A stretch of DNA of 29,828 nucleotides from Minisyncoccota bacterium. GTDB taxonomy: Bacteria > Patescibacteriota > Minisyncoccia > SW-4-49-11. Both the position numbers and the translations under genes were made by a program. Positions 17,369-22,518 of this stretch are shown here, piece by piece. The stretch spans positions 1 to 29,828 of the forward strand of contig JAHEOE010000071.1 in the NCBI GenBank assembly GCA_018609785.1, given 5' to 3'. Within the stretch, counting starts at the first letter, position 1; every line of letters begins with the position of its first letter. The notes under the pieces are model-generated. The model was not told where the DNA came from, did no database searches, and saw nothing but the letters and a program-made list of their open reading frames with translations.

Positions 17369-17479
17369 AGAGAAGCCGGAATTTAGAAGCCAGAAGCCTG
17401 AAGGGGGAAGTCAGGAATGTCTGGATATACAGTAGCGGGTACGGTGGATACACGGTAGATATATGGTTGTGGATAATAG
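17369..17479. repeat. Modular repeat: heptamer tract (module D) + 23-bp units
   Basis: agaagcc/ggaattt/agaagcc/agaagcc/tgaaggg/ggaagtc/aggaatg; 17369-17419 matches the reverse complement of 22388-22438 at 44/51; unit gatatacagtagcgggtacggtg at 17424-17446. Confidence 0.85.
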
Positions 17480-17646
17480 TAGAAGTCATCTCAAAATTCA
17501 CATAACCAAAATGTATCGAGGCTAACGGATCATATGAAGGAACCCGGGTAGGGAGTGGCTAGGCATGTGCACTGAATATGAGCCGTTAGCCGAGATCATA
17601 TTCGTATATTATAGTAATCGAAAGAATATTTTTGAGATGGCCTCTA
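17480..17646 (+). mobile_element. MITE-like TIR-hairpin element, divergent copy with inverted core
   Basis: TAgaagtcatctcaaaa...gaaagaatatttttgagatggcctcTA; internal stem ggctaacggatcatat/atatgagccgttagcc; loop homologous to the reverse complement of the copy-1 loop. Confidence 0.75.
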
Positions 17647-17745
17647 GTATCTGGAATTGAAGGGAGAAGTTGGAAGTGAGCATTGTGATATACAGTTGTT
17701 TGAGGCGTATTTCGTAGATTGTATATCGTATCTCGGATGAAAAGT
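17647..17745. repeat. Modular repeat: module C + 18-bp box A
   Basis: 17659-17698 matches the reverse complement of 22368-22407 at 37/40; gtatatcgtatctcggat (17721-17738) is the exact reverse complement of 22291-22308. Confidence 0.85.
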
Positions 17746-17754
17746 GAAACAGAC

Positions 17755-17818
17755 TGTGTCCTCCTCTGTTTAAAGGTTATATATTCGTCCGAACATCCTT
17801 TAAACGTCGACATGGCAG
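17755..17818. repeat. 64-bp hairpin module B, copy 1
   Basis: 58/64 identical to 22206-22269 in the same orientation; stem gtttaaagg/cctttaaac; abuts the fmt stop codon. Confidence 0.9.
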
Positions 17819-17820
17819 CC

Positions 17821-18747
17821 CTACGAAAATTGAGAGACGGAGTACCCGTTCGTGAAGGTCGCGGCGTCCATAAATTGCTTGCCTGCCGGTTTGAGCGAGC
17901 CAACCTGAATCTCTCCCGCACCGGTGCCGACGCGAAGGCTATCTTTGTCCGGTGTTACCTCACCCGGAGAAAGAGAAGAGTCAGAGCGCTCAAATGTCAG
18001 GTTATCTAACACGATCTTTTGGTCATTCATAAAAGTGAATACTCCGGGCCATTGGTTGAGAGCGCGGTATTGGTTATAAATGGACTCGGCGGACTGAGTC
18101 CAATCAATTTGTCCGTCCGTTTTATGTAAAAAGCGAGAGAACGTTGCCTCGTTGTGGTTCTGAGGTGTTAATTCGGAGTTCCCTGAAACATAGGCGGGAA
18201 GGTGATTGAGAAGAAGCTTGGCTGAAAGCGATGCGAGGCGCGGCTCCAGATCAGTAATCGTTTCTGTCGGAGATATGGTCAAAGATTTTTGAGCGAGTAT
18301 TGGTCCGTGATCCATTTTCGTATCCATTTCGATAAGCGTCACACCTGTTTCGGCATCGCCGTTCCAAAGGCTGAATGTGATTGGTGCGGGACCGCGATAT
18401 TGGGGAAGGAGAGAAGGGTGAACATTCACAACACGGTAATCAAGGGCTTTCAAAAGATCCGCGGACAAAATACTGCCGTAGGCGGCAACTACGACTACGT
18501 CAAAACTGAGAGAGGGTATGGTCTGAATAACCTCTGCGCGGTTGATATTTTCCGGCGTATAGACGGGGATTTTATTGGTTGTGCCGTAGGCTTTGACCGG
18601 AGACGGTGTGAGAATCTGTTTTCTGCCCACGGGTTTATCCGGAGTGGTTACCAGTCCGACAAGATCGGTATGATCGGATCGGTCCAGTTCGGTGACAATC
18701 TGTTCGGCAAAGAGGGGGGTTCCGAAAAAAAGAACACGGATAGGCAT
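17821..18747 (-). CDS. fmt: Methionyl-tRNA formyltransferase
   Basis: FFGTPLFA, VT.PDKPVGR, VAAYG.IL, NVHPSLLPQYRGPAPI, MD.G; ATG 18747 preferred over track start 18774. Confidence 0.96.
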   Translation of the reverse strand: MPIRVLFFGTPLFAEQIVTELDRSDHTDLVGLVTTPDKPVGRKQILTPSPVKAYGTTNKIPVYTPENINRAEVIQTIPSLSFDVVVVAAYGSILSADLLKALDYRVVNVHPSLLPQYRGPAPITFSLWNGDAETGVTLIEMDTKMDHGPILAQKSLTISPTETITDLEPRLASLSAKLLLNHLPAYVSGNSELTPQNHNEATFSRFLHKTDGQIDWTQSAESIYNQYRALNQWPGVFTFMNDQKIVLDNLTFERSDSSLSPGEVTPDKDSLRVGTGAGEIQVGSLKPAGKQFMDAATFTNGYSVSQFS

Positions 18748-18759
18748 AAAGAAAGGTAT

Positions 18760-18784
18760 TAGATGGTATTTCAAAAGTATTCTT
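18760..18784. repeat. Degenerate TIR-like end
   Basis: tagatggtatttcaaaagtattctt vs family end tagaggccatctcaaaaatattctt (20/25). Confidence 0.45.
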
Positions 18785-18840
18785 ACAGATCCTCGATATA
18801 CTTATCTCTTTAAAATGTATCTCAGAAGTTTGTCATTTCC

Positions 18841-21542: not shown

Positions 21543-21556
21543 AAGTATATTATAAT
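21528..21556. promoter_or_regulatory. Overlapping divergent promoters for greA (+) and priA (-)
   Basis: Plus strand: TTGAAG (21528-21533), 17 bp, TATAAT (21551-21556). Minus strand: TATAAT at 21554-21549, 7 nt before the priA ATG. Confidence 0.6.
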
Positions 21557-21591
21557 CGATACATAATAGATAAATAAAGGATAGGTTGTGT

Positions 21592-21647
21592 TGAATAGCG
21601 TTCCGGAAAGATATCCGGACGCTATTCATTTCCTGTCCGGAAAGATA
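21592..21647 (+). promoter_or_regulatory. Structured greA leader (attenuator-like hairpin + direct repeat)
   Basis: tgaatagcg-t-tccgga-aagata-tccgga-cgctattca (15-bp stem, one bulge) then tttcctgt; TCCGGAAAGATA at 21602 and 21636. Confidence 0.55.
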
Positions 21648-21658
21648 ATATATCACAT

Positions 21659-22117
21659 ATGGCCAGTCGACAGATTACTCCCAAAGGACTTCAAGAATTA
21701 AAACAGGAATTGGAAGATCTTAAAAGTCGTAAGGGAGAAATTGCCGAGAAAATTAAATACGCCAAGGAACAAGGTGATCTCAAAGAAAACAGTGAGTATC
21801 AGGAGGCGCTTAATGATATGCAGTTTAATGAGCGACGGGTTGCCGAATTGGAAGATATGATTCGTAATTCCGAGGTGGTTGAACACACCGAAAAGTCCAA
21901 TTACGTGACCTTGGGGTCTCGCATTAAGGTCAAAGGAGCTGTTGGTGAGCGTGAGTTTCGTATCGTCGGCGCGTCCGAAGCCGACCCTACGGAAGGAAAA
22001 ATTTCCAATGAGTCTCCTTTGGGCAGTGCCTTTATGCATCGTAAAGCCGGTGAAGAGTTTGAGGTGGAGACACCGGGCGGAAAGAGTACGTACACCATTC
22101 TGGAGATTTTAGAATAA
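21659..22117 (+). CDS. greA: Transcription elongation factor GreA
   Basis: IT.KGL.EL..EL..L, A.EQGDLKENSEY, V.LGS, IVG..EADP..GKISNESPLG.A. Confidence 0.97.
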   Translation: MASRQITPKGLQELKQELEDLKSRKGEIAEKIKYAKEQGDLKENSEYQEALNDMQFNERRVAELEDMIRNSEVVEHTEKSNYVTLGSRIKVKGAVGEREFRIVGASEADPTEGKISNESPLGSAFMHRKAGEEFEVETPGGKSTYTILEILE

Positions 22118-22205
22118 ATTGGTAGGTGAAAAATGTGGAATTCATATCAAAAATACGTTTTCATATAGCACTGAACCCTCACTTTTCTGAGAATAAAAAG
22201 CAGGA

Positions 22206-22269
22206 TGTGTCCTCCTCTTTTTAAAGATTACATATTCGTCCGAGTATCCTTTAAACGTCGGCATGGCAG
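22206..22269. repeat. 64-bp hairpin module B, copy 2
   Basis: 58/64 identical to 17755-17818. Confidence 0.9.
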
Positions 22270-22284
22270 AATATACGTTAAGCC

Positions 22285-22518
22285 CTTTTTATCCGAGATA
22301 CGATATACGAACTACCATTCAAAACAGTATATCAATTGTATCCGCTACAGTATATCCACCGTATCCACAACTGTATATCACAATGCTCATTTCTAACTTC
22401 TTCCTTCAGGCTTTTGACTTCTAAATTCCGACTTCTCTTTCATAGATTCCAGATACCAAATTCCAATCACTTGCTACCTGCTACTCACTACTTGCTACTG
22501 TTTACGCAACCGTATATC
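22285..22518. repeat. Composite modular repeat (modules A, 23-bp units, C/D, E) in reverse orientation
   Basis: Contains reverse complements of all modules seen at 14782-14868 and 17369-17745; tandem 23-bp units at 22334-22356 and 22357-22379 plus a partial unit at 22320-22333. Confidence 0.88.

Follow-up and report, generated by a model that had tools for sequence, protein, structure and literature searches.

The window analysed here is a whole contig of 29,828 nt (JAHEOE010000071.1, our contig C71) from the metagenome-assembled genome (MAG) of a Minisyncoccota bacterium, which was recovered from a sediment metagenome (GCA_018609785.1; 883 kb in 129 contigs, 46% G+C, 88% complete). Three intergenic loci of this contig (14782-14867, 17363-17830 and 22198-22518) and a fourth at 13698-13785 carry mosaics of short repeats, which we read as incomplete copies of a single composite repeat that is long, ordered and non-coding. 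A full copy has arms, built from tandem arrays (modules U, E, D and A) in a fixed order, that point at a cargo of the modules B, M, X and often Y. With a second, inverted arm after the cargo, a single strand would fold as a giant stem-loop. We propose that such mosaics arose as gene-less derivatives or relics of selfish elements that resemble the intervening sequences (IVSs) of 23S rRNA genes and are built around a gene for a four-helix-bundle protein (4HB; PF05635, also known as S23p or 23S rRNA IVS protein). Individual copies would then have been eroded by truncation and internal deletion, and split by miniature inverted-repeat transposable elements (MITEs) that target TA. We give this reading as a whole a probability of roughly 0.6, and for the descent of the mosaics from 4HB elements, taken by itself, we consider the odds about even.

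The repeats of the window belong to a genome-wide family. With four or more copies as the threshold for a repeat locus, self-BLAST and an iterated nhmmer census of the source genome yielded 181 loci that span 44.6 kb, or ~5% of the whole assembly; of the non-coding DNA they take up ~25%. Non-coding DNA is here everything outside open reading frames (ORFs) of at least 100 aa, and 85% of the repeat bases lie in it. Each window module has 10-30 further copies in the source genome, as measured by self-BLAST depth, many more than chance would give, and the nhmmer families comprise 20 (B), 65 (M), 57 (X), 42 (E), 47 (D) and 116 (U) hits. The most diagnostic module was matched in just one other genome among the 185,579 species genomes scanned, PXOY01 ('Parcubacteria group bacterium SW_4_49_11'). 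This MAG is of the same genus and was separately assembled in another study, and we refer to it as the sister species (G001). A preliminary description of this DNA, made from the letters of the window, had proposed a recombinogenic mosaic family and had named an ancient duplication confined to these loci as the observation that would speak against it. The copies found elsewhere in the source genome and in a second, independently assembled species uphold the part of that proposal that concerns a genome-wide intergenic mosaic.

Modules E, D and A are tandem heptamer arrays, of AGTAGCA-type units with an AT-rich tail (E), GAAGNNN units (D) and CGTANNT units (A). Tandem Repeats Finder (TRF) reported period 7 at 14813-14844, 17385-17403, 17706-17735 and 22469-22499, and all three heptamer classes occur between genes throughout the genome. 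The U module, first described as 23-bp units, consists of GATAYACRGTN units at 11- or 23-nt spacing, and what had been called module C is the junction of a D array and a U unit. B is an incomplete piece that runs on into a B-M-X unit of ~185 nt in 13 other copies, which align over their full length. The B copies of the window end within M, with 5 nt of M at 22269 and 17 nt of M at 17830. M is laid out as GGCAGTCC, a short variable stretch, GAAAATA, hairpin H1, a single G, hairpin H2 and AGTGNCCGT, and its context is near-constant, with CGTCGACAC on the left and TTCGA on the right. In X, a GC hairpin (H3) whose loop is of the GNRA type precedes GGAGGA, and a further module, which we named Y, often comes after X. 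An A array precedes B in 6 copies besides the one at 17700-17744.

Pairwise alignment reproduced the identities between the window loci that had been counted by hand: 58/64 for B, an exact 18-mer for box A, 39/42 for C, 49/57 for D and 66/72 for E, the last with an exact run of 37 nt. A repeat search within the window placed the B copies in direct orientation (pair D4, 17747-17818 and 22198-22269, 88%) and every array module in inverted orientation. The inverted pairs are 14798-14869 with 22443-22514 (I3, 92%), 17363-17419 with 22388-22444 (I4, 86%), 17658-17699 with 22367-22408 (I7, 93%), 17714-17744 with 22285-22315 (I9, 90%) and 17424-17458 with 22345-22379 (I8, 86%). The order and orientation of the modules are thus as they had been noted.

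The locus at 17363-17830 reads on the plus strand as a D array (17363-17419; I4, TRF), U units (17424-17475; repeat pairs and nhmmer), a variant MITE at a TA within the array (17480-17647), D-type heptamers running into a U unit (17658-17699; I7 and reading of the sequence), an A array (17700-17744) that contains box A at 17721-17738, B with a CCTCCTC head and an AT-rich hairpin (17747-17813), and the first 17 nt of M (17814-17830), up to which the repeat depth holds at 14 and which were aligned to full copies. When the flanks of the 17480-17647 MITE, which ends in TA on both sides, are rejoined, they resemble the uninterrupted U, E-tail and D of other copies, as seen by comparison with contig C86. 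This locus would be a left arm with B and with a MITE inside the arm. The locus at 22198-22518 starts on the plus strand with B and the first 5 nt of M (GGCAG; 22198-22269, from the repeat match, depth and alignment) and continues on the minus strand with A (22285-22315), U as 2.5 copies of the 23-nt unit (22323-22380; TRF and I8), D (22388-22444), whose inner end forms module C with a U unit at 22367-22408, and E (22443-22514). At the third locus, a U unit of the 11/23-nt period (14782-14803) begins 6 nt past the stop codon of the upstream gene and is followed by E (14804-14867, plus strand) and by a MITE at a TA in the E tail (14868-15040, TA on both flanks); this would be an arm fragment with a MITE.

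To determine whether the modules are shuffled, as had been suggested, we counted their adjacencies in the source genome. E is followed by D 17 times and D by E once; further frequent steps are D to U (22), U to E (14), U or D to B (9), B to M (15) and M to X (19). The array modules are co-oriented in 106 adjacencies and opposed in 4. As these counts hold genome-wide, the canonical order is U-E-D-U-A, then B-M-X, often followed by Y, and one order and one polarity are kept across the genome rather than shuffled. The locus at 17363-17830 follows this order from D and U, across the MITE and the D/U junction, to A, B and the start of M.

The locus at 22198-22518 is where B appeared to be flipped. 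Among ten B-array junctions in the genome, this is the only one at which B stands directly before reversed arrays. A copy on C19 reads B-M-X-Y and then reversed A and U, and a two-armed copy on C4 has an array arm, B-M-X-Y and then reversed U and E. As the reversed A and U of the window are homologous to the right arms of such copies, 22198-22518 can most simply be read as a right-armed copy that lost M-X-Y by deletion, without any inversion; B would look flipped there because the deletion removed M-X-Y before the right arm. The preliminary description instead took B as an invertible segment of a recombinogenic, shuffling system. This accounts for the orientation of B, which is direct between the two loci, whereas the other modules are all inverted. 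An 8-bp inverted word (ATAAAAAG / CTTTTTAT) does flank B at 22190-22295, and an inversion between these words may also have given rise to 22198-22518. However, the orientation occurs at one of ten junctions, the right arms on C19 and C4 explain the arrangement, no recombinase gene lies nearby, and the opposite orientation of B was not seen in the contigs of four sequencing runs, although contigs and unitigs drop rare variants. We therefore regard a recombinogenic shuffling system with B as its invertible segment as very improbable.

Repeat-driven chimeric joins in a short-read MAG could in principle mimic a mosaic. Logan unitigs break within every repeat locus, a contig end is no more than 100 bp away from 23 of the 181 loci, and the bin includes one foreign contig as well as strain-duplicate contigs. 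But the same modules occur in the same order in the independent MAG PXOY01, and the copies differ by 5-25%, hence they have not been collapsed. Moreover, a 231-nt unitig of the source run (22231-22461) spans the unusual junction, from the 3' end of B into reversed A, U and D, at a depth of 13.4, with flanks at 11-12.3. As this is single-copy depth, the odd B junction is not a scaffolding artefact, and we see hardly any chance that misassembly explains the family. The strain-duplicate contigs (C27/C127, C66/C128, C72/C129 and C77/C78) are 90-98% identical over 1.7-6.2 kb, showing that the bin mixes close strains; they yielded no informative repeat polymorphism. The repeats themselves break short-read assemblies of such MAGs.

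The link to 4HB genes comes from other loci of the family. A 650-nt block that encodes a 130-aa 4HB protein is present twice in the source genome, on C86 and C90, with 84% identity between the copies. In both (C86:9929-10735 and C90:1779-2410), the 4HB gene lies exactly between an E/D/U left arm and an inverted right arm. These are the two 4HB genes of the source genome, and their inverted-repeat scores are 38 and 22, compared with 9 and 8 at decoy positions. The sister species has a single 4HB copy with a left arm, and its contig ends before a right arm would be reached. As the same arms bracket both 4HB genes as inverted pairs, we read the mosaics as derivatives of 4HB elements. We infer that such elements spread as blocks and that the 4HB protein may have some role of its own.

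The association between 4HB genes and inverted heptamer arrays extends beyond this genus. Of 301 genomes sampled across the class, 182 have PF05635 genes. We tested 31 4HB genes, 29 of them from other genomes, with a cut-off of 12.5 for the inverted-repeat score and decoys placed 750 nt away. A flanking inverted repeat was found at 22 of the 31 genes (median score 15.5) and at 3 of the 31 decoy positions (median 9.0). Among the 29 genes from other genomes of the class, 20 are bracketed by inverted repeats, mostly of period 7. The best period was a lag of 7 or 14 in 21/31 upstream and 26/31 downstream flanks. In five genomes that we inspected directly, the 4HB genes have plain inverted heptamer arrays, whose unit sequence differs from genome to genome.

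In Coxiella burnetii, the 23S IVS is described as a selfish element; it is excised by RNase III, and its S23p ORF is preceded by a variable number of tandem GACAGAT heptamers (PMC4990558). This is the sole published case that matches, and only a few heptamers were noted beside the ORF. Like the IVSs with an S23p ORF in Coxiella and Leptospira (PMC4990558), the elements described here would be small and selfish, and their two-armed copies have inverted repeats that are predicted to form a long stem. IVSs have variable-number heptamers next to the PF05635 ORF, and in the source genome both PF05635 genes are bracketed by the arrays of the mosaics. Inverted terminal repeats of this kind, with heptamers, are found at the C86, C90, C4 and C19 copies, whereas the window copies are one-armed and ORF-less. 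The window copies also differ from IVSs in location, as all of them lie between protein or tRNA genes and none in helix 25 or 45 of 23S rRNA. Furthermore, the arms are long arrays of several classes (11/23-mers and three heptamer classes), hairpin modules can replace the gene as cargo, and there are dozens of copies per genome. On a broader scale, tandem heptamer arrays of the kind known as short tandemly repeated repetitive (STRR) sequences could be the terminal repeats of widespread, undescribed selfish elements with 4HB genes, the arrays being recognised by the pentameric 4HB protein and the gene-less mosaics being non-autonomous derivatives, related to 4HB elements as MITEs are to insertion sequences. 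We offer this generalisation tentatively and consider it rather less than likely.

Several observations weigh against the derivation of the mosaics from 4HB elements, or against a single composite unit. The window loci have no 4HB ORF and one arm each, so that the 4HB link rests on other loci. The B-M-X cargo is absent from the 4HB elements themselves, which thus do not account for it. As 4HB genes are common in the class (182/301) and the repeat family is confined to one genus, the 4HB gene alone does not explain its proliferation. M and X also occur solo, and their relative orientation varies (opposed 6 and 4 times), so that they may be independently mobile hairpins. We found no target-site duplication, short terminal inverted repeat (TIR) or defined outer end for the mosaic composite, which sets it apart from MITEs. 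The closest copies differ by ~5%, so no recent transposition is documented. Finally, both genomes are fragmented MAGs, 88% (source) and 73% (sister) complete.

B had been described as the hairpin module of the family, but its stems show no change on both sides in any copy, which makes B the least supported hairpin of the set. The covarying hairpins are instead those of M and X, of which the window retains M as stubs at the B loci. Among 12 full B-M-X copies, compensatory changes were found at 5 of the 7 pairs of H1 and at 2 pairs each of H2 (in M) and H3 (in X). The covariation score was 0.202, compared with 0.095 for shuffles, none of which reached it in 500 trials; pairing was lost when the stem partners were slid against each other. 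Over 113 M copies from both species, H1 is 91% Watson-Crick paired. Four of its positions show 3-4 pair types, and the loop reads GNNA in ~90% of cases. The two species have about seven H1 stem variants in common. The two-armed copy on C4 is predicted to form a giant stem-loop, with its arms paired and the cargo as the loop, at -166 kcal/mol compared with -122 for shuffled sequences (z -6.3).

Such structures could be functional cis-acting RNAs, in which the hairpins and paired arms, once transcribed, are retained by selection as terminators, RNase III sites or stabilisers of transcripts. GNNA and UUCG-type loops on covarying stems fit this explanation, as does the better conservation of the modules than of coding DNA between the two species; the arms of the Coxiella IVS are RNase III substrates (PMC4990558). 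The reverse strand of M H1 scores as an intrinsic terminator, and the arrays lean to the sense orientation (same versus opposite strand, both species pooled: E 30:14, D 22:9). On the other hand, the orientation of M relative to genes is unbiased in either species (28:18 pooled), no enrichment of M is seen downstream of genes on the strand that resembles a terminator, and occupancy is not conserved at orthologous gaps. Rfam returned tRNAs only, both for the window at gathering score and for nine full-copy loci at E-values up to 1. G-T and A-C mismatches are equally frequent (19 versus 26), so the wobble asymmetry that we had considered as a sign of RNA structure is not there. The equal mismatches and the lack of M orientation bias argue against a purely RNA-level, strand-specific role, and we think it unlikely that cis-acting RNA function explains the family. 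As for M as an intrinsic terminator in particular, the H2 stem is almost pure A/T, H1 is terminator-like on the reverse strand only and the orientation statistics are unsupportive.

The preliminary description likened the family to bacterial interspersed mosaic elements (BIMEs), which in Enterobacteria combine repetitive extragenic palindromes (REPs) with linkers and are associated with REP-associated tyrosine transposases (RAYTs). The likeness is real in that the family is extragenic (85% of its bases), present in many copies (181 loci) and composed of palindromic units and linker motifs that often lie between convergent genes. In contrast to BIMEs, there are no alternating Y and Z palindromes, and most of the sequence is tandem array. 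The hallmark of a REP, a 20-40 nt palindrome headed by GT[AG]G, is also missing, as the contexts found at the head of the M, X and B hairpins are ATAGG, GAGG and TTTAAAG; GTAG was seen only within the E heptamer and not at the foot of a hairpin. The family therefore counts among the intergenic mosaic repeats, a known broad kind, without being a BIME.

A related explanation is that M, X and B are non-autonomous single-stranded DNA hairpins of REP/BIME type, or of the type of palindrome-associated transposable elements (PATEs), moved by an HUH Y1 transposase (a RAYT or the TnpA of IS200/IS605), with the arrays as mere landing ground. The strong covariation, the near-perfect Watson-Crick stems and the mismatch counts of 19 G-T and 26 A-C fit pairing at the DNA level over RNA wobble, and the ~7 H1 subfamilies in both species and the lack of M orientation bias relative to genes are compatible with mobile hairpins. 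The sister species also has an IS200-like TnpA adjoining infB. Against this, M is nearly always found in its fixed context (CGTCGACAC on the left, TTCGA on the right) and not in variable targets, the GTAG-headed palindrome is absent, and no native RAYT was found in the source genome (88% complete). The end hairpins of the sister IS200 are unlike M, B and X, and nothing similar to this IS200 is present in the source genome. The sole Y1 gene of the source bin is on C54, a contig that is probably a contaminant. We consider movement of the hairpins by such an enzyme to be quite unlikely.

The preliminary description had proposed a test for co-occurrence of the modules with a REP-associated or other nuclease gene; no enzyme in the source bin could be tied to them. 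The Y1 transposase (PF01797) and TnpB on C54 were rejected as mobilisers since the contig is free of the repeats and 85.6% identical to Escherichia coli ISEc46. C54 is 3.3 kb long, carries IS200/IS605 tnpA-tnpB beside phage-tail-like genes and has no repeats in common with the other contigs of the bin; it is probably contaminating enterobacterial DNA in the MAG. An IS5-like, single-copy gene (C16:531-1367) has 18-nt TIRs unrelated to the modules. The IS200-like tnpA of the sister (G001 contig 13, 2650-3290), which has GC hairpins and lies next to infB, is neither similar to the modules nor flanked by them. DDE_3 is absent from the source genome, and no reverse transcriptase was found in it.

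The TIR elements in and beside the mosaics had been noticed before, and they proved to be separate MITEs that were inserted into the arrays. They are 165-175 nt long, and TIRs with TA/TA duplications were found in 19 of 20 strictly parsed copies. There are ~75 of them in the source genome by nhmmer and ~60 by self-BLAST depth. The MITEs target a YTAG-like sequence, and their presence in and next to the mosaics is explained by the abundance of this target in the arrays.

To investigate how the family has changed, we compared the source genome with 53 contigs (492 kb) of the sister, nearly all of PXOY01. The regions shared by the two genomes average 72% nucleotide identity, and homologous proteins have a median identity of 70%. 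Among 213 syntenic gene pairs, repeats occupy 17 gaps in the source only, 7 in the sister only and 11 in both, the last with differing modules; any single module is common to 0-2 orthologous gaps. M copies, however, are 82-93% identical between the species. As the contents of the gaps differ, yet M is this well conserved and the H1 variants are common to both species, the family is old and still turning over, under constraint on both its sequence and its structure. Between the sister species it turns over while its hairpins stay paired. Scans of 39 related genomes and of 300 genomes from the class did not find the modules, and neither did scans of Joint Genome Institute (JGI) metagenome contigs, with two patterns, and of IMG/VR. 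The sister MAG lacks fmt and metG, and so it offers no orthologous counterpart for the fmt and metG spacers of the window.

Patescibacteria, also known as the Candidate Phyla Radiation (CPR), are seen as streamlined; yet about one quarter of the non-coding DNA in this genome of ~1 Mb belongs to one family of ordered, probably selfish repeats. Arrays of several heptamer classes are reportedly found in cyanobacteria as well, where Mazel in 1990 and Elhai in 2008 are said to have described STRR arrays with nested small dispersed repeats and MITEs. The units found here presumably differ from those of the named STRR classes. TAACTGA heptamer repeats occur in Beggiatoaceae, Cyanobacteria and Bacteroidetes, just upstream of start codons (PMC4679880). 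The family described here shares with STRR and TAACTGA repeats the intergenic heptamers of multiple classes, the nested hairpins and MITEs, and the patchy distribution over lineages, but it has a fixed order and polarity and a hairpin cargo, and it resides in a reduced CPR genome. Its arrays also do not lie just upstream of start codons, unlike TAACTGA repeats. The fixed polarity of the arrays offers a concrete and testable clue to where the heptamer repeats of bacteria come from.

Ordered modular intergenic repeats with strong predicted structure are also known as the BOX elements of Streptococcus pneumoniae (boxA-boxB(n)-boxC) and the neisserial intergenic mosaic elements (NIMEs; RS units between dRS3 repeats). 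The present family has in common with both a modular, ordered arrangement between genes and a strong predicted secondary structure. It has no sequence relation to either, and it differs from them in its period-7 and period-11 arrays and its link to a 4HB gene.

The repeat loci of the window are surrounded by housekeeping genes, namely those for a pseudouridine synthase, gatA, gatC, fmt, def, priA, greA and metG. The minus-strand gene fmt ends inside the truncated M, with its TAG stop (17821-17823) and its last three codons in window positions 17819-17830, and the repeat thus supplies the stop codon of an essential gene. The mutually inverted arrays at 17363-17744 and 22285-22514 bracket the 4.4-kb block of fmt, def, priA and greA. 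In G002, one genome of the family, fmt and metG are on the same strand, unlike in the source genome and in G005, and the block may have been inverted in evolution.

A number of smaller features were seen in the two genomes. TCGA-centred words frame M in full B-M-X copies, and in one subfamily the frame is a 9-nt direct repeat (AAACGTCGA); such framing may be the scar of an insertion or a core for recombination. Tandem arrays of M, with a period of ~100 nt and two alternating left linkers, occur in the sister species (G001 contig 14, 3230-3560; contig 5, 10800-11100). Full B is absent from the sister, where the head of B is present only as a palindrome fused to reversed X. Mini-hairpins of ~20 nt are found inside U units (C86:10060-10125, C4:10025-10050 and C90:1805-1830; G001 contig 34, 3730-3810), with stems that are wholly different in each copy and a constant loop of TTCG, or less often GTCA or TTGC. 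These look like very small nested insertions. U units were also considered as DnaA boxes, but only one of the 21 perfect boxes of the genome falls in U. For the repeated word AAGTGNCCGT, a role as a DNA-uptake sequence is a candidate reading.

The fourth locus of the window (13698-13785, plus strand) lies between a tRNA gene (13543-13616) and the start of the pseudouridine synthase gene and has 22 further copies by self-BLAST. It consists of a solo X (13698-13761), equal to the 3' third of B-M-X, and a TIR-like tail (13762-13785). This tail is a solo sequence like the right TIR of the MITE family (TTTTGAGATG..TTCTAG) that follows X with its left partner absent, and X often has such a tail elsewhere, as in copies on C84, C67, C109 and C102.

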